Source of the DNA: Pseudomonadota bacterium
Lineage (GTDB): Bacteria > Pseudomonadota > Alphaproteobacteria > CACIAM-22H2
Assembly: GCA_041178225.1 (NCBI GenBank)
Contig: JBEGVV010000086.1
Location: 472 to 64,471, forward strand
Reading direction: 5' to 3'
DNA: 64,000 bases
Of this stretch, positions 23,745-64,000 are shown piece after piece (within the stretch, counting starts at the first letter, position 1; every line of letters begins with the position of its first letter). The notes below the pieces were generated by a model that worked only from the letters and a program-made list of their open reading frames with translations, made no database searches and was not told where the DNA came from. The translations under genes were made by a program, and so were the position numbers.

Positions 23745-24116
23745 ATGCGAAGCGATGGCCGCGGCGCCTCGATGCGCCCTCGCGTCTTCCGTCCCGGCGA
23801 GATCGTCTTCCTCGAGGGCATGCACGGCGAGGAAGCCTTCCTCCTGAAGGAGGGCGCGGTGGAGATCTTCCGTTCGTCCGGGTCGGGAGAGGTGGTCCTC
23901 GCCACGATCACGCCCGGGGACATCTTCGGGGAGATGGCGCTCGTCGACTCCCGGCCGCGTTCGGCGAGCGCGCGCTGCGTCGGCGTCGTCGTGGCGACCC
24001 CGATCCCGCGCCGGCTCCTCGAGCAGGAACTCGCGCGGAGCCCGATGATCGTGCGGGCCCTCGTCGAGCGCTACATCCGCATCATCCGCGACGCCAATCG
24101 CCGGCTGGGGGACTGA
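23745..24116 (+). CDS. stand-alone cyclic-nucleotide-binding (cNMP) domain protein
   Basis: canonical phosphate-binding cassette FGEMALVDSRPRSASARCV; 123 aa; 1 nt before CHASE2 cyclase start. Confidence 0.8.
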   Translation: MRSDGRGASMRPRVFRPGEIVFLEGMHGEEAFLLKEGAVEIFRSSGSGEVVLATITPGDIFGEMALVDSRPRSASARCVGVVVATPIPRRLLEQELARSPMIVRALVERYIRIIRDANRRLGD

Positions 24117-24117
24117 C

Positions 24118-32520: not shown

Positions 32521-32681
32521 GCGGCGAGGGGCGCAGGGCGCATCGCCATGCGGGCATGTCCCGTCGGCCCGCGGCCCTCGTTCGCATGGGCGCCCCCACG
32601 CCACGGCGCGCCCGCAACGCCAGCCGAGGGGCGGCCGCTCGTAGCGGCTGCGGTCGTGGCGGAACTGGTCGCGCGAGCCGG

Positions 32682-33497
32682 TCATCCTGCGTACACGTGG
32701 ACGATGAGGGTGTGCCATGCCGCCATCACGAGGAAGGCGGTCGCCGCGGGCACGTGCACGAAGGTCCATGCGCGCAGCAGCGTCTGGAGCGCGTATTGCG
32801 CGTCCACGGCGCGCTTGTGCCGACAGATCTCGGCCAGCGCGTCGAGGTGCGGCCGCTCGTCGGCGGCGAGGAGCCTTTCGACCGCGGCGAGCCTCTGCCT
32901 TTCCCACGCCTCGGCGCCATGGCCACCAAGGACATGGCTGAGCGCGAAGCGCGGCCGCTCGAAATACCAGGCAAGGGTCTGCGCGTAGTAGGAACCCAGC
33001 GTCTCGTGGCCGGCCGCCCCGGCGGCCTCGACCAGCGCGTTCTCGGCCGCGGCGCGGAGCCTCGCCACCTCGCCGGGGATGCGCTCGTAGATCAGTTCCG
33101 GCCCGCTTCGCGCGAGGCGCGCGGGCAGGATCGCCTGCAGCACGTGCCCGGCGATCCCGGAGGCGACGACCGCGAGGAAGAGCACCGCGAGCGCGCGGTC
33201 GGCCGCGCCCGCCGGCCATGCGGTCCCGACATGGATGGCGTAGGCGCCGATCGCCGCGACGCCGACGATGACATGCACCGAGAGCCAGGCCGAGGCCCGG
33301 CCGAGGGGAAGCATGGGCAGGCGCCTGCGCACGCCGTAGATGGCGAGGGCTGCGACCATCGCCGCGAGGATCCAGCCCGTGGCGAAGTCGGGGTCGATGG
33401 TCGATGCGCGCCGCGTCGCGCGCCACGCCCCGAGCGCCGCGATCCCCGCCGCGGCGAGGATCCAGAGGCCAGCCGCGCGCCTCGACATCGCCCTCAT
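32682..33497 (-). CDS. integral membrane protein, 5 TM with conserved intramembrane His (possible di-haem cytochrome-b-type quinol-interacting anchor)
   Basis: 271 aa from MRAMSRRAAG; His in TM3 (SVHVIVGVAAIGAYAIHV), TM4 (GIAGHVL), TM5 (WHTLIVHV); ATGA overlap with upstream FeS gene; GGGGAG RBS. Confidence 0.6.
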   Translation of the reverse strand: MRAMSRRAAGLWILAAAGIAALGAWRATRRASTIDPDFATGWILAAMVAALAIYGVRRRLPMLPLGRASAWLSVHVIVGVAAIGAYAIHVGTAWPAGAADRALAVLFLAVVASGIAGHVLQAILPARLARSGPELIYERIPGEVARLRAAAENALVEAAGAAGHETLGSYYAQTLAWYFERPRFALSHVLGGHGAEAWERQRLAAVERLLAADERPHLDALAEICRHKRAVDAQYALQTLLRAWTFVHVPAATAFLVMAAWHTLIVHVYAG

Positions 33498-35182
33498 CGT
33501 CCCGCGCTCCCCGTGCCATGCACGAGCAGGTCCTTGCCACCGGTACGGCGCAACGCGTCCTGCGGGCAGGCGCGCACGCAGGCGGGGCCGCCCGGTTGCC
33601 CGACGCAGAGGTCGCACTTCGTCGCCTTGCGCACGGGCTTCCCCGCCTCGTCGACGACCGGCGCGCCCGACATGTCCGATATCTCGACCAGCCGGATGTT
33701 GTCGTAGGGGCAGGATGCGGCGCAGGTGCCGCACCCGATGCAGGTGTCGTCGTTGATCACGACGACGCCGCCGACCTCGTGGCGATGGATCGCGCCCGTC
33801 GGGCACCCGATCATGCAGACCGGGTCCTGGCAGTGCATGCAGGCATTCGCGACCATCCAGTGGTCGGAGACCGGTCCATGCCTCACGAAGCGCGGGTTGC
33901 CGTCATGCGTCGAGGCGCAGGCCCGCACGCAGTCGTCGCAGCGCACGCAGCGATCGAGGTCGATCAGCATCGTCTGCGTGCCGTTGATCCAGCGCTCGTC
34001 GACCATCCAGTCGACCAGCCCGTCCTCCTCGATGCGCCTTTCGGTCGCCAGCGCCGCTGGCGCGTCGCGCAGCCCCGGGAACACGTGCTTCTCGAGCACA
34101 TGGGCGGGGACGCGGAGCACGTCGACATGGCCGAGGGCGGCGAGGCTCTGCGACAGCCGGACCTCGCCGCCGCTCTTCCACGCCGCGTAGGTCTCGGCGA
34201 GGCCGAACTGGTCGCCGACGCCGAGATAGCTCACCGTGCGCCTGCCGCCGCCGACCGCGTGCGACAGCCTCGCGAAGCCGGAACGGACGAGGTAGATGCC
34301 GTCCGGCCGGCTGCCTTCCGCCGCGATGATCGGCTCGTCCGCCGCGTTCTCCTGGCCCGCGCCCTTGCTGCGCTTGAGCGCCACGTGCCAGTCGGCGTCG
34401 CCGTAGGTCTTGAACTTCACCTTCCCGGCGATCGCGGCCAGCGTCTCCGCGTCGAGGGAGGCGAAGAGCGGATGCGCCTGGAGATGGTTGAGCAGCGCGT
34501 TGCGGCGATAGTTCTCGTCGATCCGCCGCTTCCAGCCCGGGTCGAAGCGCCGGAGCTCCCGCAGCCCCTGCCAGCGTATCTCGAGCAGGCGCGCGCCGCC
34601 CTCCGCGAACACCGTGGCCGAGCGTGGCACGCGCCCGAGCGCGGCGAGCTCGCCGAATATGTCGCCCGCCTGGAGCGTGACGGTGCGGTTCCTGTCGAGG
34701 ACGCGCGGTATGTCCTGCAGGAACATGAAGGAGCGCGCGGCGTCCTCCGGCTTCAGTCGCGCGGCACGGCCGTCGAGGTCGCGCGCCTCGGGATGGGCCG
34801 GGCGGTTCCATGCGCGGGCGATGGTCTCGAGGATCCCCCGCGTCCGGGGCGCCTGGCGCCCGAGTTCCTCCCGCGGCAACCCCGGCGGCAGGACGACGCG
34901 CAGCGTGCCGTCGAGCACCAGGAAGGCAGAGTTGCCGTAGTCGCCCTCGCGGACCGCGATCGCGCCCGGGTCGAGGGAAACGATGCGCGCGTCGTTGCGG
35001 AGTATGCCGCGCAGCGGGATGCCGGGAGGGAAGTCCTCCGCCCGGATGGCGGCGATCTCCGGCCGCTCCATCAGGGCGTCCACGTCCGCGTCGGACATGT
35101 CCGCCCCGAATGGCACGTCCCACCGCGCGAGGCGACCTACGACCGTCGTTGGCCCGCCCGCGGACCTGCTTCCGGCGTTCAC
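33494..35182 (-). CDS. fusion protein: two cyclic-nucleotide-binding domains + NrfC/PsrB/DmsB-type four-[4Fe-4S] ferredoxin domain
   Basis: PBC FGELAALGRVPRSATVFA (canonical) and FGLAETY... (degenerate); CVRCDDCVRAC, CMHCQDPVCMIGCP, CIGCGTCAASCP, CDLCVGQPGGPACVRACP; GTG start at 35182 (alt ATG 35098). Confidence 0.82.
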   Translation of the reverse strand: MNAGSRSAGGPTTVVGRLARWDVPFGADMSDADVDALMERPEIAAIRAEDFPPGIPLRGILRNDARIVSLDPGAIAVREGDYGNSAFLVLDGTLRVVLPPGLPREELGRQAPRTRGILETIARAWNRPAHPEARDLDGRAARLKPEDAARSFMFLQDIPRVLDRNRTVTLQAGDIFGELAALGRVPRSATVFAEGGARLLEIRWQGLRELRRFDPGWKRRIDENYRRNALLNHLQAHPLFASLDAETLAAIAGKVKFKTYGDADWHVALKRSKGAGQENAADEPIIAAEGSRPDGIYLVRSGFARLSHAVGGGRRTVSYLGVGDQFGLAETYAAWKSGGEVRLSQSLAALGHVDVLRVPAHVLEKHVFPGLRDAPAALATERRIEEDGLVDWMVDERWINGTQTMLIDLDRCVRCDDCVRACASTHDGNPRFVRHGPVSDHWMVANACMHCQDPVCMIGCPTGAIHRHEVGGVVVINDDTCIGCGTCAASCPYDNIRLVEISDMSGAPVVDEAGKPVRKATKCDLCVGQPGGPACVRACPQDALRRTGGKDLLVHGTGSAGR

Positions 35183-35186
35183 CGCG

Positions 35187-36143
35187 TCACTTGTAGGTCG
35201 AGGGTGCCGGCAGCTTCGGGCCGACCTGGGCCGAGAGGTCCTTGCTGGCCAGCGCGTCGACGAACTTCTTCGCGTTGTCCTCGGTCGGACGGGCGAGCAG
35301 CGCGGCCGCCTCGGGGACCTGGCCCTTGACGCCGTCGATGGCGGCGCGGGCGGCGGACTTTATCTGGTCGAGCGTCTGCTGGAATTTCGGGTTCGTGGAC
35401 TTGCCCGTGGCCGCCGACGTCTGGACGAACGCGGCCGCGTGGCCCGTCAGGAACACGCGCGAAAGCTCCGCGACGCTCATCTGCGCGTTCTTCGTGACGT
35501 CGGGCGGGTAGAACCGATGCCGTACCGTGCCCTGCGAGTAGCGCACGAGCTCGAAGCTGGAGCCCGCCGGATGGCCGGCCGCCACCATCTTGGCGATCGT
35601 CTCCGCAGGCACGTCCGCGCGGCCCATGCCATGGCAGCTCAGGCAATTCTCCGCGACGTCGTAGAGGTTGGACGGCCAGATCATGCCCGCGGCCGCCGAC
35701 TTGCGGATCCGATCGGCCTTGTGGGTCGGGGACTCGGTCTCGCGCTTGGCTCCCGCGCCGTAGTCGTTGTGCATCGTCAGCCATGCCGACGCCTTGCCGT
35801 GGCAGCTCTCGCAGGACGGGCCCGACGTCGCGCTGGGCGCTGCCGAGGCGCTCGCCTGCGTGCTCGAGAAATGGCAGGCCGTGCAGACCTCGTTGCGCCT
35901 CATGTTCGTGTTGCCGCCGACCGCGGCGATGATGTCCTTCACCTCCGGCTTGCGGTGGATGTCCTTGAAGGAGGTCGCGTGCTTCGACGCTTCCCAGACG
36001 GCCGTCTCCGCCTTGTGGCAGTCGGCGCATTTCTGCGCCCCGACCATGAAGTGCTGGGCGCCGGCGACGGTGGCGACGAGGCTCGCGAGCCCGATGCCGG
36101 CGGCCAAGGCGGCACGCCTGAAGAAGTCGAACGCTACCATCAT
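35187..36143 (-). CDS. tetraheme c-type cytochrome, signal peptide
   Basis: CADCH, CTACH, CESCH, CLSCH; MMVAFDFFRRAALAAGIGLASLVATVAGA signal; GGGGGA RBS; first gene of operon. Confidence 0.85.
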   Translation of the reverse strand: MMVAFDFFRRAALAAGIGLASLVATVAGAQHFMVGAQKCADCHKAETAVWEASKHATSFKDIHRKPEVKDIIAAVGGNTNMRRNEVCTACHFSSTQASASAAPSATSGPSCESCHGKASAWLTMHNDYGAGAKRETESPTHKADRIRKSAAAGMIWPSNLYDVAENCLSCHGMGRADVPAETIAKMVAAGHPAGSSFELVRYSQGTVRHRFYPPDVTKNAQMSVAELSRVFLTGHAAAFVQTSAATGKSTNPKFQQTLDQIKSAARAAIDGVKGQVPEAAALLARPTEDNAKKFVDALASKDLSAQVGPKLPAPSTYK

Positions 36144-47776: not shown

Positions 47777-48025
47777 CTAGGCGGTCAGCGACATGGCGCC
47801 GCCGCGCGCGCGCTCCCTGCGCCCGTCGGCGCGGTAGCCGGCGGGCGGGTCGACGCTCGACCCCGCCTGCCGCGACATCGCGGCTTCCTCCGCGCGCCGT
47901 CGCTCCTTCGCGTTCGCGAGCTTCTGCTCTTCCGCGGCGCGGCGCGCCTGCGCCTCCTCCGGGCCGGGGCGCGTGGCGCCGAGCACGCGGTCGCGGAGAG
48001 GATGCGAGGCGACTGCATGGCTCAT
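47777..48025 (-). CDS. small basic/acidic hypothetical protein (82 aa) coupled to J-domain gene
   Basis: ATGA overlap with upstream J-domain gene stop; Arg/Glu-rich. Confidence 0.35.
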   Translation of the reverse strand: MSHAVASHPLRDRVLGATRPGPEEAQARRAAEEQKLANAKERRRAEEAAMSRQAGSSVDPPAGYRADGRRERARGGAMSLTA

Positions 48026-48642
48026 GGGCGCGCGCGCTTCCTTCGTTCCTGGAGGACGTCGAATATGCGCATGAAGTAGCGGAATTCCGCGCTCGACGCA
48101 TCCGGATCGTCGCGGGAAGCGGCCGAATCGGGGTGGAACCGTCGCGCGAAGGCACGCCGCGCGGCCTCCAGGACGAAGTCGGGCGCCTCCGGGGAGAGGC
48201 CCACCCGCGCATAGAGGGCCGCGGTCGAGTCCCGGCTGGCGTCGTCCCCGGCCGGCTTCGGCGCGGCAGCGGCCTGGCCGGCCGCGACCTGCGACTTGAG
48301 CTGCATGTAGGAACGCTCGAAGTACCGCGATCGCTGCCCCACGACCTGCAGGGTCTCTTCCAGGCGCGCCATCTGCCCGCGCAGCGCCTCGACGGTCTCC
48401 TCGAGCCCGCGCGCGCGCTGCTCGCTTGCCGCGCGGCGCGGATCGACCTGGTCCTGGGCGGGGCGCGCCTCCGTGGAGCGCTCGCGCAGGGCATCCTCCA
48501 GGGTGACGACGCGGTCGCCATCCCTCCTGCGCCAGCGATAGGGCGCGCGCCGCGCCGCCGGCGCCGGCGCGTCCTGCGCGGCGTCCTGCCGCGAGCCGGC
48601 GATCCGCCGACGCAATCGCTCGAGCCATTCAATCCGGATCAA
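48022..48642 (-). CDS. coiled-coil protein with C-terminal J domain (DnaJ-like HPD motif); start uncertain (TTG 48642 or ATG 48372)
   Basis: ALYARVGLSPEAPDFVLEAARRAFARRFHPDSAAS...AEFRYFMRIFDVLQ fits J-domain helices I-III with HPD. Confidence 0.55.
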   Translation of the reverse strand: MIRIEWLERLRRRIAGSRQDAAQDAPAPAARRAPYRWRRRDGDRVVTLEDALRERSTEARPAQDQVDPRRAASEQRARGLEETVEALRGQMARLEETLQVVGQRSRYFERSYMQLKSQVAAGQAAAAPKPAGDDASRDSTAALYARVGLSPEAPDFVLEAARRAFARRFHPDSAASRDDPDASSAEFRYFMRIFDVLQERRKRARP

Positions 48643-48763
48643 GGTGCCGGACGCTAGCGGCTCGGCGGGCGCCCGCGGGGGGCGAGACGGGTCCGAAACG
48701 GACGCGAAGCGAGTCCGCCGCGGGGCGCGCGTCCCTATCGTTGCCGCGTGGAATGAGGGACGG

Positions 48764-49156
48764 ATGGCCAACACCTCCAGGCTGCTCGAGGGTGCGATGC
48801 GCTGGTGGTCCGCGCGCGGCGGGCTCACCGCGTCCAACGTCGCGCGTGCCGACATCCCCGGCGAGAAGTCCAGGGACTTCGCGCAGACGCTGGCGGAGCA
48901 CGTGAACAAGCCCGTCCCGCCCCGGCTGCCGATGGCGTCGACCACGCCCGGGCACCGCGCGGGTCGGCTTGGCGAGGCGGATCGCGTCGCGAAGGTGGTC
49001 GAGGAGCGCGGCACGTCGGTGATCAGCGGCAACGAGATCTCGGTCGAGGAAGAGATGATGAAGCTCGCCGAGATCTCCGCGCAGCACCAGCTCGCGGCGA
49101 CGACGTACCGGAAGAACGTGTCTCTCCTGCGCCTCGCGCTGCGCGGAGGCCGCTGA
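48764..49156 (+). CDS. flgB: flagellar basal-body rod protein FlgB
   Basis: Met41 of track ORF 48644..49156 after GAGGGA; C-terminal GNEISVEEEMMKLAEISAQHQLAATTYRKNVSLLRLAL rod motif. Confidence 0.8.
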   Translation: MANTSRLLEGAMRWWSARGGLTASNVARADIPGEKSRDFAQTLAEHVNKPVPPRLPMASTTPGHRAGRLGEADRVAKVVEERGTSVISGNEISVEEEMMKLAEISAQHQLAATTYRKNVSLLRLALRGGR

Positions 49157-52891: not shown

Positions 52892-53198
52892 CGGGCGGCG
52901 GCGATAGCGCCGATCCGGACCTGTCTTCGCGGGGGCGCGATCCGGCGTTCCATAGTTTCGCGCCATGAACACCGTCGTTCCATCCGGTCCCGGGTCGCGG
53001 GGCCGGAACGAACTCGAGACCGCCCAGCGTACCCGCGGGGACACGGGAACCGGCCTCGCGCGGCGCGGCGGCAGGGGCGTGACCGCCGACACGGGCGCGC
53101 CCCAGGCGGCGCTTGCCCGCCGGCTCGAGGACCTGCCGCGCCAGGCGGTCATGCCGCGGGGATCCTACGTCGACATCCTTGCCTGAGCCGGTGGCCCC

Positions 53199-54563: not shown

Positions 54564-55784
54564 ATGCGCATGGCCCTCGCGTTCGCGTTCACGCTCGCCG
54601 CGGCTCTCATGCTCGCAGCCATGCCCTCGCGCGTGCACGCGCAGGCAGGCGTCTCGTTCGAGTCGGCCGTGGCGACCGCGCGGGTGCTCGCCGCGCGCCG
54701 GGACGTCGACAACGCGCGCGCCATCATCCGGGCGACGAATGCCTACGCCGCCGGCGGCGGCACGTCGCGTTCCCTCCCGGAGGCCCATGCCGCCGCCTTC
54801 GAGGCGCTGCTTGCGACGCACGGCGCGGCCTCCGCCGACTGGCTCGCGCGCGACGATGCGCAGCGCGCCCGCGTCCGCGACGCGCGCGTCGTCCTCGGCG
54901 CGGTGCGGAACCCCGGCAAGGCGAAGCCGGAGGCGGTCGCGCGGGCGGTCGGCGACGGCACCTGCCATCTCCTGCTCGACGCGACCGTGATCCGGCCGGC
55001 CGAGGCGCGCCGCGTCGTGGAGTCGGTGCTGGAGGGAGGGTTCGACTTCGCGGACGACCAGAAGCGCTGCCTCGTGCGCGCGGTCGCCTCGAACCCTGAA
55101 TTCGCCCACGGTCCCCTGCCGCCTCTCGGCGCGCTCGCGGCCTCGGGGGACGAGGAGACGCTCGCGCTCCTCGTGCAGTTCGCCGCCGCGCAGGGCAGCT
55201 TTCCCAAGGCGCTCGCATTCGCCGCCGAGGCGACGGATGCGGGCCAGAGGGCGCGGTTGCAGGCCGCCGTGGTGACGATGCGCCAGTTCGCGTCGATAGC
55301 CCTGCCCGAGCCCGACCTGCTGCGGGCGCTCTGGACCAACGCCCGGCAGCGGACGGGCGGCGAGAGGCTTCTCTTCGGCTCCCTCCTCGCTTCGCGCGCG
55401 ACCGCGGAGTTCTGGATCGCCGAGGCAGGGAACGTCGCGGAATTCGCCGGGCGTGATCCTGCCGCGCGTGCCGTGGTGGCCCTTGCCGCACGCCGTGCCC
55501 TCGCCGGCTCGACGCCGGCCTCGCGGGCCGCGCTCTGGTCGGCGGCTCCGTCGATGCGGCCCTCCGCGGACTTCCTCGTGGTGCACGCGGCCTTCTCCGA
55601 CCCTGCCGTCGAGGTCGCCATCCCCCCGGGCACCGATCCCGCGATCGCGCGTGCCATCCGTGTCGCGCGCGGCGCGGGTGCATCCTTCGGGCGCACCCTC
55701 GCCGAGTTCCCCGGCACCGGCGCCGGCGCGCTGGAGGTGGCGGCGCTGGTCGTCTCCGCGATTGGCGCTGCTCGTGCGGACTGA
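54564..55784 (+). CDS. secreted Ala-rich periplasmic protein (possible MotC-like motility protein)
   Basis: Met48 of track ORF after AGGGAG; signal peptide MRMALAFAFTLAAALMLAAMPSRVHAQA; 406 aa; position downstream of motB. Confidence 0.45.
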   Translation: MRMALAFAFTLAAALMLAAMPSRVHAQAGVSFESAVATARVLAARRDVDNARAIIRATNAYAAGGGTSRSLPEAHAAAFEALLATHGAASADWLARDDAQRARVRDARVVLGAVRNPGKAKPEAVARAVGDGTCHLLLDATVIRPAEARRVVESVLEGGFDFADDQKRCLVRAVASNPEFAHGPLPPLGALAASGDEETLALLVQFAAAQGSFPKALAFAAEATDAGQRARLQAAVVTMRQFASIALPEPDLLRALWTNARQRTGGERLLFGSLLASRATAEFWIAEAGNVAEFAGRDPAARAVVALAARRALAGSTPASRAALWSAAPSMRPSADFLVVHAAFSDPAVEVAIPPGTDPAIARAIRVARGAGASFGRTLAEFPGTGAGALEVAALVVSAIGAARAD

Positions 55785-56829
55785 GGCGCGCGTCCGCCTG
55801 GTGGCCTTCGTCCTGGGCGCGGTCCCGGCCGCGATGCTCGCGCTGTCGCCGGTCCGCGCGCATGCGCAGGTCGCGGCGACGGCGTGCGGCGGGGATTTCG
55901 AGGCGGCGCTGGCGAGGCTGGTGGCGATGCCGCCCGCGGCGATGTCGCCCGTCGACGTCTACAACGCCGCGTGGTTGCGCAGGATGCTCGGCGATCCGGC
56001 GCTGCTTCCCGCCGAGGCCCCCGCCCTTGATGGCGAGGTGACGGGGGCCTGCTCCGGGCGGCGCCTGGCAGCGCGGTTGGCCGAGCTGTGGCCGGGCTTC
56101 GCCGGAGGCAGCCTCGCGCCCGAACCGATCCGCGTCGTCGCCCTCGAGCGGGTGGTCGCGCAGGCCGCTCCAGCCCCGTCCCCGCCACCCGCGCCACCTG
56201 CGCCGCCTCCGCCACCCGCGCCATCTCCGCCTCCCGCGCCAACACCGCCGCCTGCGCCAGGCGCGCCACCGACGCTGCCCTCCATCGCCCCTCCGCCCGC
56301 CGCCGCGCCTCCCGCGGCCATCGCAGTGCCCAATCCTCCGCCGGCACCACTGGTCCCCGCGCCCCGGGCGGCCGCGATGCGCCCGCCATCGGCTCTCCCC
56401 GCCGCGATCATCCCGCCTCCGGGTCCTCCTCCGCCGCCTTCGTCCTCCCCGCCGCCGCGCCCCTCCAGCGCTCCGCCGGCACCGCCCGTGGTCCCCGCGC
56501 AGGCGCGATCCGAGACGCAGCCCGCCACGCCCTCGCGCGACGCGCCGCCGCGCGACGCCGCGCCGCGCGCGGTGGAACGTGGCCGCAAGCCGGCGCCCGT
56601 CGTGCTGCTCGGGGCGCACCAGAGCCGCGAGAGGGCGGAGGCCGCACTGGGCAGGCTCCGCGAGGCGCTCGGACCCGAGCTCGGCGCCCGCCTGTTGATC
56701 GATGGCAAGGCCCCGCGGCTGCGGATCCTGCTCTCGGACACGGAGCCGCAGGCGCGCTGCGAGGAACTCAAGGCGCGCGGCGTCGCATGTTCATTCCTCT
56801 ATCCCGCGGCCGACGGATCGTTGCGATGA
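55774..56829 (+). CDS. Pro-rich secreted protein with C-terminal SPOR (peptidoglycan-binding) domain
   Basis: signal peptide; long PAPPAPPPPPAPSPPPAP tract; C-terminal VVLLGAHQSRERAEAALGRLREALGPELGARLLIDGKAPRLRILLSDTEPQARCEELKARGVACSF (SPOR pattern). Confidence 0.55.
   Translation: MRTEARVRLVAFVLGAVPAAMLALSPVRAHAQVAATACGGDFEAALARLVAMPPAAMSPVDVYNAAWLRRMLGDPALLPAEAPALDGEVTGACSGRRLAARLAELWPGFAGGSLAPEPIRVVALERVVAQAAPAPSPPPAPPAPPPPPAPSPPPAPTPPPAPGAPPTLPSIAPPPAAAPPAAIAVPNPPPAPLVPAPRAAAMRPPSALPAAIIPPPGPPPPPSSSPPPRPSSAPPAPPVVPAQARSETQPATPSRDAPPRDAAPRAVERGRKPAPVVLLGAHQSRERAEAALGRLREALGPELGARLLIDGKAPRLRILLSDTEPQARCEELKARGVACSFLYPAADGSLR
56164..56524 (+). repeat. GC-rich near-tandem codon repeats encoding PAPP tract inside SPOR-protein gene
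   Basis: ccgcc(a/t)cc(c/t)gcgcc-type units; possible length-variable region. Confidence 0.45.
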
Positions 56830-56978
56830 GCCGCGGCAAGGACCAGGTGCGCGGCATCGAGGTGCCTGGCCGCCGGCCGACGCTGGCCTACCCGCTCCTG
56901 ATCGTTCGGCGGATGGGGATCCCGATCCTGCTGGCCTGCATGGCGCTCGACCTGCTCGTCCTGCTGCTGCTCGGCTGA
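56826..56978 (+). CDS. small hydrophobic membrane protein (50 aa), ATGA-coupled
   Basis: MSRGKDQVRGIEVPGRRPTLAYPLLIVRRMGIPILLACMALDLLVLLLLG. Confidence 0.35.
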   Translation: MSRGKDQVRGIEVPGRRPTLAYPLLIVRRMGIPILLACMALDLLVLLLLG

Positions 56979-56988
56979 GGCGGGGCCT

Positions 56989-57489
56989 TCACGGCAGTCG
57001 CGGCAGGACGACCCAGTAGAGGGCGCAGAGCCAGATCAGGGCCAGCGCCAGTCGCAATGCCGGCCGCGCGGCGCGCGGATCGCCCCCGAGCAGGGCCAGC
57101 GGACCCATGCAGAAGCGCCAGACCAGCGTGTCGAGCGACCTCGCCTCCGCGTAGATGGCGCTCTCCGCGCCATACACGCGGAACAGCGCGATGCGGAGCT
57201 TTCCCTGCACGGCGGGATCCGCGGTGGAAATGCCCTCGGAAAGAAGCGTGTCGCCCCCGAGCCGCGGGAACATCGCCTCGCTGAACCGCGCGTCGGCGAG
57301 TCCATGTCGCCGCAGCAACGCGCGTATGTCCTCGACCAGGACGGGATCGGCGGACGGGGACCAGATCGACTGGCGCAGCCGTGCCTCCGCGCGCATGAGC
57401 ACGTGGCGCGCGGCGAGGAATCGCCTGCGGGCGCGGACCAGCGCCGAGGCGTGGGCGATGATGGTCGCGAGGATCCAGAGCACGCTCAT
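56989..57489 (-). CDS. hypothetical membrane protein
   Basis: N- and C-terminal TM; ATGA overlap with upstream gene. Confidence 0.4.
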   Translation of the reverse strand: MSVLWILATIIAHASALVRARRRFLAARHVLMRAEARLRQSIWSPSADPVLVEDIRALLRRHGLADARFSEAMFPRLGGDTLLSEGISTADPAVQGKLRIALFRVYGAESAIYAEARSLDTLVWRFCMGPLALLGGDPRAARPALRLALALIWLCALYWVVLPRLP

Positions 57490-58037
57490 GGGGCGATCGT
57501 CCCCGCGGCCATGAGCCACGCGATCGCCACGAGCAGGAGCCAGCAGAACGCGTCGAATGCGTATTCCACCGCCGGCGGCGGATCGACGCCCAGGAAGCGG
57601 ATGATCGAGGACGGCGCGTTCAGGGGGTTGAGCGGGGAGCGATAGGCGCGAAGGTCCGCGGCGATCGCGCGGGTGCAGGCTGCCTCGAGGTCGAGCAGCC
57701 AGAGCTCGATCTCGACGGCGACGCGCGGGTTGCGCAGGAAGAAGTTGTCGACGAGGTCCAGCCGCCCGGTCCTGCCCTTGAGGCGGACGGTCAGGCGGCG
57801 GCGTCCCTCGCGCATGATCTCGTTCGCCCCGCGGTCGATCCGGTGCAGCTGGGCCGCGATCTCCGCGATCGCCCGGATGTCGCCCCCCTCGGCCTGCCAG
57901 GCCCGCGAGGCGGCGCGCAGCGCCCTGATGCTGCGTCGCAGCGCCCGGCGGTCGCGTATCGCCGAGAAGCGCGCCCAGACGAGCAGCGCGAGCGCGAGGA
58001 GGAGGAATATGTCGTCGGTCGCCGCGAGTGCCTGCAT
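57486..58037 (-). CDS. hypothetical membrane protein
   Basis: track ORF 57486..58052; TM at both ends. Confidence 0.4.
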   Translation of the reverse strand: MQALAATDDIFLLLALALLVWARFSAIRDRRALRRSIRALRAASRAWQAEGGDIRAIAEIAAQLHRIDRGANEIMREGRRRLTVRLKGRTGRLDLVDNFFLRNPRVAVEIELWLLDLEAACTRAIAADLRAYRSPLNPLNAPSSIIRFLGVDPPPAVEYAFDAFCWLLLVAIAWLMAAGTIAP

Positions 58038-58153
58038 GTCGCCCCGGTGCATCGTCTCCCCGGCGCTTTCACCACGGACCGTTCATTCGGACCGATCCGG
58101 ATCAGATGCCGGACCGGTGCATATCCCGCCCGCCTAGGATCCGCGCCGAGGCG

Positions 58154-59449
58154 ATGGGTTCAATGTGGAATTTCCTTTCCGGGCTCTTTGGCGGGCGCAA
58201 GCGCGGCGCGGCGTCGCCGCGCGCGGCGGCGGACGAGCCGTCGCCCGAACTCGTGCGCCTGGACGAGCTGGAGAAGCTCGAGGCCGCCACGCGCCACCTG
58301 ATCGAGCTCGATCGGGGACGGTATGAAGGGCGGCTCTTCGTCATGAGCCTCGACACCATCAGGCAACGCTACGGCAACACCTGGCGCTACATCGCCGAGA
58401 AGGCGCAGCGCACCGCCAGGACGCACATCACCCAGGCGCTCGGCCCGGGCGACGAGTGCACGCCGGTCGGGGACGTCGACTTCCTCGTTGCCATGCTTTC
58501 CGGCTCGAAGCGCGAGGCGCCGGCGCGGGCGCTGCGCATCGACCAGGGCGTCAGCTACGCCGTCACGGGCGAGGACCTCGGCATCCTCGGTGTATCCGCC
58601 AAGCAGGTGCAGGTCGCGGAGGACGGGGCGATCTCCTATCGCCCGCTGTCGCACGCGGACCTCGAGCGGGCCGAGGCCCAGCAGTCTCCGACCATCGACC
58701 TGGAGGCCGAACTCCTCGACGACGAGGAGGAGGACGACTCCTTCCCCACGATCGACGCGGTCCTCGAGGCGCTGGTGTTCCGCGTCGAGCCCATCGTGCG
58801 GCTAGCCGACGGCGTGGTCGCCTTCGAGCGCCTCGCCGCCTTCTCCCCGCCCCTCGGGTCGGACTCCGACGAGTGGACGATCATCGAGAACTTCCCCGAT
58901 CCGAAGGTCAGGGCGAAGATCGACCTGAAGTGCCTGAAGGCCTGCCGGGCGCAGCTCAGGCGCGTCGCCGCGCAGCGGTCGGGGCGCCGGGTGGTGGCGC
59001 CGGTGTTCTTCGAGACCCTGGCCAACAACTACACGCGCGGCCTCTTCCTCAAGATGGCGCAGAAGGTCCCCCAGCCGGCACGCAAGTCGCTGGTGTTCCA
59101 TGTCGGCGGCGTCCCCGCGGGCGTTGCCCAGTCGCGGCTCGCCGAACTCGGCTCGGTCGTGAAGCCCTTCTCGAGCGGCGCCTTCATCGGCCTGCCAGCC
59201 GACTTCTCGGGATTGGAGGCGCTGCGCGACCTCGTGCTCGTCGGCATAACGGCCGACGTCCCGGCTTTCGGGGACGCCAGCGAGCTGCTCTCGGCCGCCC
59301 ACGGCGCGGGCCTGCCGACATGGGTCTCCGGACTGCGCACGGACGAGGACAGGCAGCGCGCCTTGCTGCTCGGGGCTGCCTATGGGTCGGGCCCGCTCTA
59401 CCCGGCGGAAGTCCCGGCCGCGACCGAAGACGCCGACGCGGAGGCCTGA
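58154..59449 (+). CDS. hypothetical protein upstream of motA (possible degenerate EAL-like C-terminal region)
   Basis: Met43 of track ORF 58028..59449; acidic linker DDEEEDD; no confident domain. Confidence 0.45.
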   Translation: MGSMWNFLSGLFGGRKRGAASPRAAADEPSPELVRLDELEKLEAATRHLIELDRGRYEGRLFVMSLDTIRQRYGNTWRYIAEKAQRTARTHITQALGPGDECTPVGDVDFLVAMLSGSKREAPARALRIDQGVSYAVTGEDLGILGVSAKQVQVAEDGAISYRPLSHADLERAEAQQSPTIDLEAELLDDEEEDDSFPTIDAVLEALVFRVEPIVRLADGVVAFERLAAFSPPLGSDSDEWTIIENFPDPKVRAKIDLKCLKACRAQLRRVAAQRSGRRVVAPVFFETLANNYTRGLFLKMAQKVPQPARKSLVFHVGGVPAGVAQSRLAELGSVVKPFSSGAFIGLPADFSGLEALRDLVLVGITADVPAFGDASELLSAAHGAGLPTWVSGLRTDEDRQRALLLGAAYGSGPLYPAEVPAATEDADAEA

Positions 59450-59458
59450 GGCAGCGCC

Positions 59459-60307
59459 ATGTTCGTGGTCATCGGCATCGTCATCGTGCTCGTCTGCTGC
59501 CTGGGCAGCTACGTCGCCATGGGCGGGAAGCTCTCGGTCCTCAACCAGCCGCTCGAGTTCGTCATCATCCTGGGGTCCGGGATCGGGGCCTTCGTGGCGG
59601 GCAACCCGATGAGCATCATCAAGGGTTCCATCGGCGCGATGATCGCCGGCCTCAAGGGGCCGAAGATCAAGAAGGCGCACTACGTCGAGCTGCTGTCGAT
59701 GATGTTCGACCTCTTCAAGCTGGCCAAGCAGAAGGGGATGATGGCGCTCGAGCCGCATGTCGAGAAGCCGGAGTCGAGCGACATCTTCTCGAAGTACCCG
59801 CTCATCATGTCGGACCACCACATCGAGGAATTCATCCGCGACTACCTGCGCATGCTGACGCTCGGCACCGAGAAGGCGCACGAGCTGGAGGCCGTCATCG
59901 ACGCGGAACTCGAGTCGCACCACAAGGCCGACCACCTCTACTGCTCCGCCCTGCAGACCTTCGCGGACGCGCTGCCTGCGCTCGGCATCGTCGCCGCCGT
60001 CATGGGCGTCATCAAGACGATGGGCGCGATGGACCAGCCCCCGGCGGTGCTCGGCGGGCTGATCGGCGCGGCCCTGGTCGGCACCTTCGCCGGCGTGCTC
60101 CTGGCCTATGGCATCTTCGGTCCCATCGCCGCGGCGGCGAAGAACTCCCTCGAGGCCGACTCGCAGGTCTACAACGTCATCAAGGCCGGCATCCTCGCCT
60201 ACATGCAGGGCTATGCGCCGGCGGTCGCCATCGAGATGGCGCGCAAGACGGTCGAGGCGGGCGAGCGGCCATCCTTCTACGACCTGGAGGCGGCGCTTGG
60301 AAAATAA
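59459..60307 (+). CDS. motA: flagellar motor stator protein MotA
   Basis: 4 TM; conserved MotA cytoplasmic loop and C-terminal TM3-4 (ALPALGIVAAVMGVIKTMGA); 282 aa. Confidence 0.9.
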   Translation: MFVVIGIVIVLVCCLGSYVAMGGKLSVLNQPLEFVIILGSGIGAFVAGNPMSIIKGSIGAMIAGLKGPKIKKAHYVELLSMMFDLFKLAKQKGMMALEPHVEKPESSDIFSKYPLIMSDHHIEEFIRDYLRMLTLGTEKAHELEAVIDAELESHHKADHLYCSALQTFADALPALGIVAAVMGVIKTMGAMDQPPAVLGGLIGAALVGTFAGVLLAYGIFGPIAAAAKNSLEADSQVYNVIKAGILAYMQGYAPAVAIEMARKTVEAGERPSFYDLEAALGK

Positions 60308-60340
60308 CCGTCGCCGCGCCTCGATGGGGGACCTGGCCTG

Positions 60341-60934
60341 ATGTCGGCGCCAGCCAAGCAGCAGGACGCGGCCGCCGAGTCCGCAGAGGGCGAGCCGAAG
60401 AAGGGCTCGAAGCTCAAGCTCATCCTCGTCGTGCTCGTCGCGCTGCTCTTCGTGGCAGGCGGTGGCGTCGCCGCCGGCGTTTTCCTCCTGGGCATGAAGC
60501 TGCCCTTCATGAAGGCGCAGCAGGCCGAGGAGGGCGGCGAGGAAGGCGCGAAGGTCGACCCGAGGGAGGCGGAGCGGCGCGAGCAGGAAAAGCGCGACGC
60601 CGAGAAGGCCAAGCAGAAGGCGGCGGCGACCCGGAGCCTGTTCGTGCAGATCCCGCCGATCGTCGTCAACCTCGCCGACCGGGAGGCGAGGCGCTACGCG
60701 CGCGTCGTCCTGACCGTCGAGGTGGTGCTCCCGGAATCCGAGGTCGCGGTGAAGGAGAACATGCCGAAGGTCATCGACGCCTTCCAGATCTACGTCCGCT
60801 CGCTGACGGCCGAAAGCTTCGGGTCGATGGCCAGCATCCTGCAGGTCCGCCGCGAACTGCTCGCCAGGCTGAACCGCATCGATCCGCGCATCGACGCGCG
60901 GGCGGTGCTGTTCCAGGACCTGGTCGTCCAGTAG
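60341..60934 (+). CDS. fliL: flagellar basal-body-associated protein FliL
   Basis: single TM, FVQIPPIVVNLAD...RYARVVLTVEV FliL core. Confidence 0.8.
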   Translation: MSAPAKQQDAAAESAEGEPKKGSKLKLILVVLVALLFVAGGGVAAGVFLLGMKLPFMKAQQAEEGGEEGAKVDPREAERREQEKRDAEKAKQKAAATRSLFVQIPPIVVNLADREARRYARVVLTVEVVLPESEVAVKENMPKVIDAFQIYVRSLTAESFGSMASILQVRRELLARLNRIDPRIDARAVLFQDLVVQ

Positions 60935-60943
60935 GGGGCGAAG

Positions 60944-61960
60944 GTGAGCGATCTCGCGCCCGTCGAGCAGCAACCCGCCAGCGTGCAGTCGGCGCGCCCC
61001 GTCGTCCTGGTGGTCGACGACGACGTCGACACGGTGGAGGAGCTTTCCGACCTCGTCCGCTCCATGGGCTACCCCGTGCGCAAGGCCAGGGATCCCGGCC
61101 TCGCCCTGAACATGGTCGCCGAGTCACCGGACATCGGCGTCGTCCTCCTCGACCTGCGCATGCCGCGGCTCGACGGCCTCTCCCTCGCTACGCGCCTCGC
61201 GCGCGGCGGTACCGACGCGGCGCCGCAGTTCATCTTCATGTCGGGGCGCGCGACGATCGACGACACGATCGCCGCCGTTCGGCTCGACGCCGTCGATTTC
61301 CTGGTCAAGCCGGTCGCCCAGAAGGCGCTCGCCCGCGCCCTCGCGCGTGCCAACGACCTCATCGCGGGCAAGCGCCGCGACCTCCTGCGCAACGTCGAGA
61401 TCATGAGGTCCGTGGAGGCGGTGGCGAGCCATGCGATCAAGCTCGCGAACGAACTGTCGAGCATCGCGCCGCCCGCCGCGCGGCAGGAGTCGTCCGGCCC
61501 GGTCTTCACGCCGCGCGCGGCGCGCGCGCGCGGGCCAGCCAGCCAGCCGGGCGACCCGCAACCCGACGGTGGCGCCAGCGCGGCGCAACCGCCGATGGAC
61601 GGCGCGGACACGCGCGCGCGCAACGAGTTCCTGCGCAACCGGATAACGGCCCTGATCGCGGCGCGCCGCGCGCGCGCCAACTACTTCGACGCGTCGCTGT
61701 TCTCGGATCCCTGCTGGGACATGCTGCTCGACCTGATGAACGAACGGCTCGCGGGCAAGGAAGTCGCCGTGTCCAGCCTCTGCATCGCGGCGGGCGTGCC
61801 GCAGACGACGGGCCTGCGGCGCATCGACGACCTGATCCGCGCGGGCCTCCTCGTCCGTCGCGAGGACCCGCGGGATCGTCGCAGGGTGTTCGTCGACCTC
61901 GCCGACACCGCCGTCGAGCGGTTGAACCGCTACATGGACGAGATGAACACCCTGGGTTGA
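60944..61960 (+). CDS. response regulator: REC receiver domain + C-terminal MarR-type winged-helix DNA-binding domain
   Basis: VVLVVDDDVDT...phospho-acceptor Asp in VVLLDLRMPRLDG; C-terminal VSSLCIAAGVPQTTGLRRIDDLIRAGLLVRREDPRDRRRVFVDL (MarR DxR motif). Confidence 0.75.
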   Translation: MSDLAPVEQQPASVQSARPVVLVVDDDVDTVEELSDLVRSMGYPVRKARDPGLALNMVAESPDIGVVLLDLRMPRLDGLSLATRLARGGTDAAPQFIFMSGRATIDDTIAAVRLDAVDFLVKPVAQKALARALARANDLIAGKRRDLLRNVEIMRSVEAVASHAIKLANELSSIAPPAARQESSGPVFTPRAARARGPASQPGDPQPDGGASAAQPPMDGADTRARNEFLRNRITALIAARRARANYFDASLFSDPCWDMLLDLMNERLAGKEVAVSSLCIAAGVPQTTGLRRIDDLIRAGLLVRREDPRDRRRVFVDLADTAVERLNRYMDEMNTLG

Positions 61961-62098
61961 GGCGCGGCGGCGGGGCGGAATTTCGCCAATGGACCGTTTC
62001 GGACCATAATTCCGCGCCAATCTGGGCCTAGCATGGCCATTCTGTCGCAGCGGTCGCCGATCCGGGGACCGCCGCGCGCATCGGCTCATGGCCCCTGG

Positions 62099-62974
62099 AT
62101 GTCTCGGATGGAACCCACTCCCGCTCGCCGGCAGATTGGCGTCCTCGTCGCGGAGGACGATCCCGACCTGCGGCAGGAAATCGTCGATGGCCTGCGCGAC
62201 GCCGGGTTCCGCTGCCTCGCGGCCCCGGACGGCGCGGCGGCGCTCGAGGCATTGCGGCTGTGCAAGCAGCGCCTCGACGTCGTGCTCGCCGACATCTACA
62301 TGCCACGCCTCGGCGGCATCGGCCTGGTGGGCGCGATGGCGCGCGCCGACGACGTCGACCCCTGGGTCCGGACCATCCTGATGTCGGGGAAGGGCTCTCC
62401 CGAGATCATGCGCGAGAGCCTGCGGACCAACGCGATCGAGGTCCTTTCCAAGCCGGTCGACATGCCCGCGCTCGTCGCCGCCGTGGAGCGGGCGGGCGCG
62501 ATCGCGGCGGCGGCGCGCGCCAGGTTCAGGCCCGCGCAGGAGGCCGATGGCGGCCTCGCACCTGCCGCGGCCAGCGGCCAGGCCTCGCTCGGCTCCGACT
62601 TCCCCGTCCTGCTGGCCGAGCGCATCCGCCGCTTCATGGCCCTCGAGAGGGAGCGCTCCGAGGTCTTCGGGCGCGACCTGGTCGGCGCCCCCGCCTGGGA
62701 CATGCTGCTCGAGCTCCTCGACGCGAAGCTGCGCGGGCAGAGCGTGTCCGTCTCCAGCCTGTGCGTCGCCGTCGACACGCCGGCCACCACTGCCCTGCGC
62801 AGGATCGACGACCTGGTCGGCAGCGGGCTCGCGCGCCGGCGGCCGGATCCCGCGGACCGGCGGCGTGTCTTCGTCGAGCTCACCGACGAGGCGGTGGAGC
62901 GACTCGACCGCTTCCTGTCGAGGCGCAGCATCGCCGACGAGCGGCGCGGCGACCTCGCCATTCGGCGCGCATGA
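62099..62974 (+). CDS. paralogous response regulator: REC + MarR-type wHTH
   Basis: IGVLVAEDDPDL...VVLADIYMPRLGG; C-terminal VSSLCVAVDTPATTALRRIDDLVGSGLARRRPDPADRRRVFVEL. Confidence 0.75.
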   Translation: MSRMEPTPARRQIGVLVAEDDPDLRQEIVDGLRDAGFRCLAAPDGAAALEALRLCKQRLDVVLADIYMPRLGGIGLVGAMARADDVDPWVRTILMSGKGSPEIMRESLRTNAIEVLSKPVDMPALVAAVERAGAIAAAARARFRPAQEADGGLAPAAASGQASLGSDFPVLLAERIRRFMALERERSEVFGRDLVGAPAWDMLLELLDAKLRGQSVSVSSLCVAVDTPATTALRRIDDLVGSGLARRRPDPADRRRVFVELTDEAVERLDRFLSRRSIADERRGDLAIRRA

Positions 62975-63363
62975 TCGGCGGGCCGCACGCACCGGTCGCG
63001 ATGCCGGCGCGGCGCGTCCTCGTCGTCGACGACGACCCCGAGCAGCTGGACGAGCTCATGGAGATGTTCAGGGACGCAGGCATCTCCGCCGCCTCGGCGT
63101 GCGGCGCGACCGAGGCGATGGCGATGCTGTCGACCATGCGCCCGCAGCTCATGCTGGTGGACATCAAGATGCCGGGGATCGACGGCCTCAAGCTGGCGGA
63201 CTTCGCCCGTGCGATCGACCGGCGCATCATGATCGTCCTCATGTCCGGCGACTGGCATGCGGCCGAGAACTCGAGGGGCCGCGACGACGGGATCCTGGCG
63301 GTCGTCACCAAGCCGCTCGACCCGGCCTGGCTGGTGGAGACCGCGCGGGCATTGACGCACTAG
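62971..63363 (+). CDS. single-domain response regulator (CheY-like REC)
   Basis: ATGA overlap with previous gene; RVLVVDDDPEQ...LMLVDIKMPGIDG...TKP. Confidence 0.75.
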   Translation: MIGGPHAPVAMPARRVLVVDDDPEQLDELMEMFRDAGISAASACGATEAMAMLSTMRPQLMLVDIKMPGIDGLKLADFARAIDRRIMIVLMSGDWHAAENSRGRDDGILAVVTKPLDPAWLVETARALTH

Positions 63364-64000
63364 CCGCGATCCTGGCCCGGCGCCTCATGCCTTCGCATCT
63401 GGTACACGCGCACGAGTATCTGCGCGACCTCCGCGAAGCAGTCGTCGGGGATCGGCTCGTCCACGTCGACCTCGCGATAGAGCCGCCGGGCGACCGGTGG
63501 CACGCGCATGATGGGGACCGAAGCCCGCCAGGCGAGCCATCGCAGGCGCCGCGCGACCAGGCCCGCGCCCTTGGCGATGACGATGGGCGCGCCCATGCGC
63601 CCGGGTTCGTAGAGCAGCGCCACCGCGAAGTGGGTCGGGTTCACGACCATCACGTCGGCCTTCGCCAGCGGGTGCTTGCGGCTCGTCGTGCGGCGCTTGC
63701 GGCGGAGCTCTGCCAGCTTGCCCTTCACCTCCGGCCTGCCCTCGCTCTCCTTGAGTTCCTCCTTGAGCTCCTGGCGGGACATCCTCAGCTGGGCGCGGTT
63801 GGCCGTCCGCTTGACCAGCAGGTCGACGAGCGCGAAGGCGCCAAGCATGCCGAGCGCCAGCGGCAGCAGGACCAGGGTCGCCTCGAGGGCCAGCCTCCCG
63901 GCCTCGCGCGCGGTGGCGCCGACGCCAAGGGCGACATAGCCGCGGTGAAGGGCATGGAGCGCCAGGCCGAAGAGCAGCACCGCGGCAAGCAGCTTCGCCG
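63360..64000 (-). CDS. flhB: flagellar biosynthesis protein FlhB, C-terminal part (gene starts beyond window end)
   Basis: NPTH autocleavage motif (MVVNPTHFAVALLY), APIVIAKGAGLVARRLR; ORF continues past 64000. Confidence 0.85.
   Translation of the reverse strand, partial: AKLLAAVLLFGLALHALHRGYVALGVGATAREAGRLALEATLVLLPLALGMLGAFALVDLLVKRTANRAQLRMSRQELKEELKESEGRPEVKGKLAELRRKRRTTSRKHPLAKADVMVVNPTHFAVALLYEPGRMGAPIVIAKGAGLVARRLRWLAWRASVPIMRVPPVARRLYREVDVDEPIPDDCFAEVAQILVRVYQMRRHEAPGQDRG

Follow-up and report, generated by a model that had tools for sequence, protein, structure and literature searches.

The 64,000-nucleotide stretch of DNA analyzed here, from an alphaproteobacterium of an uncultured, Rhodospirillales-like freshwater group (assembly GCA_041178225.1, contig JBEGVV010000086.1, positions 472 to 64,471; hereafter the window) carries, inside its flagellar gene cluster, three adjacent genes encoding response regulators (RRs). 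Two of the products, RRw1 and RRw2, join a receiver (REC) domain with an intact active site to a C-terminal MarR-like winged helix-turn-helix, and the third, REC3, is a stand-alone receiver. We lean slightly toward the view that RRw1 and RRw2 act as MarR-type transcription factors that are governed by phosphorylation and dedicated to a motility regulon, and that REC3, co-translated with RRw2, shares their phosphodonor. A preliminary description of this DNA had already named the two paralogs and their domain pair; Pfam searches and a fold model bore out the domain content, and the gene limits proved exact to the nucleotide.

The three genes are closely packed with their neighbors (Table 1). RRw1 starts with a GTG codon only 9 nt past the fliL stop codon and is therefore probably the terminal gene of an operon comprising the gene of a 428-aa protein, motA, and fliL; no terminator-like site was found between fliL and RRw1. 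The longest open reading frame (ORF) containing RRw2 begins at 62033, and the ATG adopted here is the one kept in relatives and chosen in the public gene call. The ATG of REC3 overlaps the RRw2 TGA as ATGA, and the same 4-nt overlap is present in a relative of 75% identity (L088), in agreement with the coupled, bare receiver gene of the preliminary description. The public gene call on a contig with an identical RRw1 (L087) gives the same boundaries and products of 338, 288, and 130 aa. Third-position GC reaches 0.93-0.96 in all three same-strand ORFs (60944-63363), and the G+C content across the window is ~70-76%. The flanking genes were assigned by Pfam, which confirms the location of the trio between fliL and flhB. 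REC3 on the plus strand and flhB on the minus strand converge so closely that their stop codons overlap at 63360-63363, leaving no room for a terminator between the two genes.

All three proteins matched the Pfam family Response_reg well above its cut-off of 30.2 bits (RRw1, E = 8.8e-21, 74.6 bits; RRw2, E = 4.2e-19, 69.2 bits; REC3, E = 1.9e-19, 70.3 bits), and no second Pfam domain was found in REC3. Upon alignment to CheY (reference positions D12, D13, D57, T87, and K109), the acidic pair, the phospho-acceptor aspartate, a serine, and the lysine are kept in every receiver: D25, D26, D70, S100, and K122 in RRw1; E16, D17, D62, S93, and K115 in RRw2; and D20, D21, D64, S92, and K114 in REC3. 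The AlphaFold2 (AF2) model of full-length RRw1, built on an 85-sequence alignment, has a predicted local distance difference test score (pLDDT) of 83, rising above 90 over residues 20-125 of the receiver. This domain superimposes on REC structures found by Foldseek with a root-mean-square deviation of 1.0-1.7 A and a target-normalized TM-score of ~0.9, the matches including the long-alpha5 receivers of DctD, EutV, and RssB. Helix alpha5 of RRw1 continues for 49 residues, and its segment 151-172 is conserved family-wide with the consensus LxxLxxEVxRIAxxLxxL; the linker that follows is rich in Pro and Ala and is modeled with low confidence. RRw2 has a shorter linker and lacks a conserved helix equivalent to RRw1 residues 151-172. 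NCBIfam offered no named family for the trio, its matches being confined to the receivers and lying far under the equivalog cut-offs.

In both RRw1 and RRw2, the C-terminal part matched HTH_27 (PF13463) above the cut-off of 22.2 bits (26.9 bits over residues 272-321 and 26.7 bits, respectively), so that Response_reg and HTH_27 are both recognized in each protein, while MarR_2 remained under its cut-off of 27 bits (20.3 and 24.8 bits). Modeled alone, the RRw1 domain reached a pLDDT of 92.3 and a predicted TM-score (pTM) of 0.85, with the topology alpha1, alpha2, alpha3, alpha4 (the recognition helix), a beta-hairpin wing, and alpha5. The best 50 Foldseek matches to this model in the PDB were without exception MarR-family structures, several of them DNA complexes, and among them no non-DNA-binding fold fitted the domain better. 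They align over 103-125 columns in 49 cases and over 53 columns in one, and they include HpaR (7el3/22oz), PA4135, ST1710 (3gfi), SlyA (3q5f), MepR (4lll), AdcR, and FabT; the best PDB sequence match was HucR (2fbk, E = 2.5e-4). The recognition helices of RRw1 and RRw2 are near-identical (PQTTGLRRIDDL and PATTALRRIDDL), and the wing signature D-x-x-D-x-R-R and the helix pattern T-T-x-L-R-R-I are retained; the DRR motif of the preliminary description was found in the wings as DPRDRRRVF and DPADRRRVF. The C-terminal ~120 residues share with MarR factors the D-x-R-R wing, the recognition-helix pattern, and, in the RRw1 model, the winged-helix topology as far as alpha5.

Classical MarR proteins have a single domain, measure ~140-180 aa, dimerize constitutively, and respond to small ligands or oxidation; their homodimers bind a palindromic or pseudopalindromic operator that usually overlaps their own promoter. 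In contrast, the domain found here has no helix alpha6 and stands behind a phosphorylatable receiver and a ~95-residue linker. No Trans_reg_C, GerE/LuxR-type HTH, Sigma54_activat, or HTH_8 domain was detected in the trio at a Pfam E-value of 0.1 or lower; judged by its predicted output domains, the trio is outside the OmpR/PhoB, NarL/FixJ, and NtrC families of RRs.

The flagellar location of RRw1 is conserved in relatives at 35-95% identity, with local gene orders differing. L001 (95% identical), L002, L003, and L005 have a flagellar surrounding. Two metagenome-assembled genomes (MAGs) labeled Rhodospirillales and Acetobacteraceae (~75% identity) show full synteny of the 428-aa protein gene, motA, fliL, RRw1, RRw2, REC3, and convergent flhB. 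Among RRw1-type homologs of 35-47% identity, at least six distinct arrangements of the surrounding flagellar genes were seen. The homolog lies between FliP/PilZ and other genes in L082, with FliR, FlgK, flagellin, FliW, FliS, and FliP nearby; next to MotA and FliR in L083 and L084, where FliS and flagellin are also present; after a run from FlgC through FliM, MotA, and FliL in L085 and L086; between FliP and FlgC in L091, flanked by FlhB, FlgI, FliX, and FliP on one side and by FlgC through FliG on the other; and next to MotA and FlgK in L093, along with flagellin, FliW, and FliD. Among the flagellar-cluster ORFs scanned in the window, no other transcription factor was found. The dedicated motility regulator set proposed in the preliminary description is strengthened by this recurrent placement but stays putative, and the wider family also occurs in nonflagellar contexts.

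The 64-kb window contains no recognizable histidine-kinase core, as the preliminary description had stated. Three types of search were negative: regular expressions for H-box, G1, and histidine phosphotransfer (Hpt) motifs in six frames; tblastn, for which kinases of related loci served as queries; and phmmer --max, in which the catalytic cores of four kinases were compared with all 487 six-frame ORFs and the sole significant matches were the three REC domains, reached via the receiver of a hybrid kinase. The contig with an identical RRw1 (L087) was followed for 7 kb past the window, through FlhB, FlgI, FliX, a FecR-like gene, flagellin, and FlaG, and showed no kinase there, and a relative at 75% identity likewise has none at the locus. 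More distant relatives do have one. In L082 and L085, genes for a dCache_1-HisKA-HATPase_c kinase, a small REC, and a ~360-aa REC protein with an unknown C-terminus are found near the module. At least nine loci from Tagaea or Rhodospirillales have a full-length homolog of this kinase, whose gene immediately precedes the RRw gene. In Xanthobacter sp. VTT E-85238 (L008, 6596-10762), a four-gene module encodes a kinase, a REC (131 aa), a REC-EAL (400 aa), and a REC-MarR (261 aa); the same type of module is found in L007, L009, L010, and L013, and fliF follows ~2 kb downstream of it in three of these loci (L008, L009, and L013). The small-REC partner recurs in L016, L083, L085, L090, and Xanthobacter.

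A neighbor-joining tree with 100 bootstraps placed RRw1 with the flagellar-cluster homologs in 74 replicates, and RRw1 and RRw2 (34% identical) as sister groups in just 4, so that, in this tree, RRw2 is an old paralog and not a recent tandem copy of RRw1. The preliminary description was thus right that the paralogs stand in tandem, but a recent duplication is not supported. The search with the C-terminal domain returned 4,894 clusters (50% identity) at E-values of 1e-10 or lower; among the best 150 representatives, 122 have HTH_27 and 21 a Pfam-recognizable receiver. In the genome scan made here, the family was found mainly in Alphaproteobacteria. A sphingomonad member is colinear with RRw1 over its full length but has a pseudo-receiver, since the conserved Lys and one of the two acidic residues are lost. 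Since most members have no recognizable or intact receiver, RRw1 and RRw2 belong to the minority of the family that still looks phosphorylatable. As a separate observation, the N-terminal ~200 aa of P0092, P0120, and most of the 4,894 clusters, many of them in Sphingomonadales, can be aligned colinearly with a receiver but lack key active-site residues; the sole annotation of these pseudo-receiver-MarR proteins is 'winged helix DNA-binding protein'.

Candidate target sites come from the intergenic DNA. Upstream of RRw2, a 31-bp block (Table 1) stays conserved in relatives where the flanking intergenic DNA diverges. It overlaps the sole sigma70-like call of the region (-35 TCGCCA at 61983, -10 CATAAT ending at 62010), and we consider it a candidate promoter and operator of RRw2-REC3. 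Its core reads CCGWTNCGGAY, the CCG-N3-CGG portion sitting in the sigma70-like spacer. This pattern has six matches in the window against 1.46 expected, and its three plus-strand sites are kept at orthologous positions in L003, L005, and L089. Matches lie ~45-105 nt upstream of four transcription units of the flagellar cluster, with a CTAG-containing element 23-33 nt further downstream. We regard the pattern as a tentative lead for a regulon, short of evidence for one. In a by-eye comparison, neither the sigma54 promoter (TGGCAC-N5-TTGC), the sigma28 promoter (TAAA-N15-GCCGATAA), nor the CtrA box (TTAA-N7-TTAAC) fits the element. A direct-repeat form, GGAYC-N5-GGAYC, was rejected: its 4 matches against 1.94 expected were reached in 11 of 100 shuffles, which is no significant enrichment. 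Rfam gave no match in 55000-64000.

Several observations weigh against RRw1 and RRw2 being dedicated motility transcription factors. DNA binding, phosphorylation, and a role in motility are predicted from sequence, models, and gene context. The Pfam family MarR (PF01047) scored under its cut-off of 24.6 bits in both proteins (16.6 and 16.9 bits), and because the RRw1 chain stops after alpha5, it has no counterpart of helix alpha6, which contributes to the dimer interface in classical MarR proteins. Three of the six matches to the CCGWTNCGGAY pattern had served to define it; the pattern always has the orientation of the downstream gene, its palindrome is limited to CCG-N3-CGG, which is unusual for a MarR dimer, and no match occurs in L082, L083, or L085, the flagellar loci of more distant relatives. 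The presence of FliX just outside the window, on L087, implies that an FlbD-type system also acts on the cluster. Within the family, the Azospirillum paralogs have degenerate receivers and nonflagellar surroundings, with genes for a hybrid kinase and an OmpR-type RR as neighbors, one clade adjoins Tad-pilus genes, and the Tagaea-type kinase-RR pairs have no flagellar gene within 10 kb.

The last of these points lead to the alternative that survives best, namely that the trio is phosphorylatable but controls another output, such as adhesion or pili, cyclic di-GMP (c-di-GMP) turnover, or surface polysaccharide, as a motile-to-sessile switch co-expressed with motility genes. The nonflagellar family members agree with it, as do the hybrid kinase that accompanies the Tad-pilus genes beside the related clade (L092), the REC-EAL c-di-GMP phosphodiesterase of the Xanthobacter module, and the position of RRw1 as the last gene of the motA-fliL operon, by which RRw1 may itself be an output of flagellar gene expression; however, no alternative target genes are conserved beside RRw1-type genes, which recur inside flagellar clusters as described above, and the promoter regions of the mot operons and of RRw2 have a conserved element in common. 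We consider this alternative unlikely.

Still less probable, in our assessment, is that a dedicated kinase was lost and that the RRs are wired to a CckA-ChpT-type phosphorelay or to acetyl phosphate, which would couple motility to the cell cycle or metabolism instead of to an external signal sensed by a dCache kinase. The lack of a kinase over 61 kb upstream and 7 kb downstream of the trio, where relatives have one adjacent, is what such a loss would leave, and the best NCBIfam match of the RRw2 receiver was CpdR (E = 1.1e-16), the CckA receiver being matched as well; but scores so far under the equivalog cut-offs (60.9 bits against 180) reflect generic receiver similarity, while a search that spanned the window and 7 kb more leaves room for a dedicated kinase elsewhere in the genome. 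It is very improbable that the winged helix only mediates protein-protein contacts with a flagellar component or another regulator, so that the proteins are not transcription factors: the missing alpha6 and a recognition helix unusually invariant across thousands of members in differing contexts would suit such a role, but the best fold matches are all DNA-binding MarR regulators, and the wing and helix signatures are typical of MarR proteins that contact DNA.

For RRw1 and RRw2 as motility transcription factors, we infer the identity of the kinase, the mode of dimerization, the DNA targets, and the sign of regulation within a branched two-component pathway of one kinase and three receivers. 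The phosphodonor would be a sensor kinase, most likely a dCache one, whose gene lies in another part of the genome; it would phosphorylate RRw1 at D70, RRw2 at D62, and REC3 at D64. Phosphorylation would induce receiver dimerization via the alpha4-beta5-alpha5 face and the 49-residue alpha5 extension, and the two MarR-like domains would thereby be joined, an aid on which DNA binding may depend because the domains lack the alpha6 dimerization helix. The dimer would then bind promoters of motility genes, with autoregulation of the RR genes; the best target candidates are the CCGWTNCGGAY-preceded operons of motB, of the 428-aa protein, motA, fliL, and RRw1, and of RRw2-REC3. RRw1 and RRw2 would probably compete or heterodimerize at the same sites, and REC3, produced in fixed proportion to RRw2, may drain phosphate as a sink or modulate its flow.

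Table 1. Positions of the response regulator genes, their domains, neighboring genes, and candidate regulatory elements in the window.
Feature	Position	Strand	Description	Basis or remark
RRw1	60944..61960	+	338-aa response regulator: REC, long helix, disordered linker, MarR-like winged helix-turn-helix	GTG start
RRw1 receiver	61004..61342	+	residues 21-133	Pfam Response_reg, CheY alignment, Foldseek
RRw1 alpha5 extension and linker	61319..61600	+	helix residues 126-174, linker ~175-219	AF2 secondary structure, pLDDT
RRw1 MarR-like winged helix	61601..61957	+	residues 220-338	HTH_27, AF2, Foldseek, PDB sequence match
RRw2	62108..62974	+	288-aa paralog with REC and MarR-like winged helix-turn-helix	
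REC3	62971..63363	+	130-aa stand-alone receiver	
31-bp intergenic block GACCGTTTCGGACCATAATTCCGCGCCAATC	61992..62022	+	candidate promoter and operator of RRw2-REC3	each relative matches at 28-31 of 31 bases; flanking intergenic DNA diverges
Candidate cis element CCGATCCGGAT	58092..58102	+	61 nt upstream of the 428-aa protein/motA/fliL/RRw1 operon; tentative	kept in L003, L089
Candidate cis element CCGATCCGGAC	52910..52920	+	upstream of the 73-aa ORF and motB; tentative	kept in L003, L089
CCGWTNCGGAY match	48691-48701	minus	upstream of the likely true start of the DnaJ-like gene	
MotA	59459-60307		upstream neighbor of the trio	Pfam
FliL	60341-60934		upstream neighbor of the trio	Pfam
FlhB	63360-63980	minus	downstream neighbor, convergent	Pfam

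Other genes of the window and of the related loci deserve mention. The conserved 428-aa protein (58163-59449, plus strand), encoded by the first gene of the motA-fliL-RRw1 operon, has no Pfam domain, and a homolog of 55% identity occupies the same position in L085. Homology of this protein to EAL domains was considered and found to be unsupported: the Pfam match had an E-value of 0.053 and covered the last 40 residues only, the PDB sequence search was empty, and hhalign against REC-EAL proteins gave a probability of 2%. Directly upstream of motB lies a 73-aa ORF (52965-53186, plus strand) that is missed by public gene callers; it is kept in L003 and L089 with the invariant C-terminus MPRGSY(V/I)DILA. 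Another recurrent flagellar-cluster protein of 406-479 aa without a Pfam domain is encoded at 54564-55784 (plus strand) in the window, at 11562-12857 in L085, and at 17024-18463 in L082, and in the latter two loci it adjoins REC, REC-X, and kinase genes. The ORF at 48022-49032 (minus strand) shows a weak C-terminal DnaJ match (E = 0.005), and its N-terminal third looks non-coding; it is probably called too long, a TTG near 48645 being the more plausible start. Upstream of the flagellar cluster, at 23772-26373 and 29211-36143, genes were assigned by eye from their translations: a small cyclic nucleotide-binding protein adjoins an adenylate/guanylate cyclase of the CHASE2 type, and these are followed by several multihaem cytochromes c and by a protein with cyclic nucleotide-binding and 4Fe-4S ferredoxin parts. 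In L092 (7860-16747), the gene of a REC and MarR/SarA-like protein (P0044) has a PAS-HisKA-HATPase-REC hybrid kinase on one side and a Tad/Flp pilus cluster (TadE, Tad, T2SSF, and T2SSE) on the other, a context which points to regulation of adhesion pili by other branches of the family. A 5.9-kb contig with the MAG label Opitutales (L004, CAXRGI010000342.1) carries an RRw1-type gene of 43% identity that groups tightly with that of alphaproteobacterial L085, and is probably mis-binned.

Flagellar master and checkpoint regulators vary greatly among alphaproteobacterial lineages. FtcR (Brucella), Rem (Sinorhizobium), LafR (Bradyrhizobium), and CtrA are RR transcription factors that activate flagellar genes and whose own genes are located within flagellar clusters or close to them; to our knowledge, their outputs are all of the OmpR/PhoB-type Trans_reg_C, and we know of no partner kinase in the locus of FtcR, a feature it would share with the trio of the window. 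FtcR has been described as a flagellar master regulator (PMC9456535). Unlike these proteins, the trio has no Trans_reg_C, GerE, or sigma54-activator domain, and regulation by RRw1 and RRw2 is proposed from their context. It is possible, although we hold it to be doubtful, that RRw1 and RRw2 form a previously unrecognized class of flagellar regulators, the founding functional examples of a (pseudo)receiver-MarR family, which would switch the stator (mot) operons and their own genes through a dCache-type kinase and replace FtcR, Rem, or LafR in this role.

Branched pathways in which one kinase serves several regulators, among them a single-domain receiver, are exemplified by DivJ/PleC-DivK-PleD and by the CheY phosphate sinks of Sinorhizobium. 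The loci studied here resemble DivK-type pathways in that the operon of the relatives encodes a kinase, a small REC, a REC-EAL, and a REC-MarR, and in that a small REC, coupled to RRw2, is retained in the window; they differ in the MarR-type DNA-binding output and in the lack of a linked kinase in the window, the role of REC3 as a sink or modulator being putative.

The REC-MarR architecture is rare and uncharacterized, but it is not new, because it appears in a two-component census of Azospirillum (Borland et al. 2015, PMC4618731, Table 5), which lists a 'MarR' family of RRs with 0-2 members per genome, none of them characterized, and because the automatic annotation of the Joint Genome Institute (JGI) recognizes it in homologs. 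The claim of an unusual output architecture thus holds as regards rarity, although the architecture had already been catalogued. Full-text literature searches found no characterized REC-MarR member, in line with the preliminary description, and that census table was the sole mention. The Azospirillum proteins have the same architecture and 32-35% full-length identity to the proteins of the window; in contrast to the intact receivers described here, those aligned have degenerate ones, with, for example, 'IIGNDS' and 'TDP' replacing the acidic pair and the Lys.

The trio still consists of response regulators in their usual role, and the conceptual surprise is modest. The thousands of sphingomonad and Azospirillum proteins annotated as winged helix DNA-binding proteins are versions of the REC-MarR architecture with degenerate receivers. 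The Xanthobacter operon of kinase, REC, REC-EAL, and REC-MarR provides a culturable system for the family, and the conserved placement of its members in flagellar clusters gives the REC-MarR family its first concrete, testable functional hypothesis.

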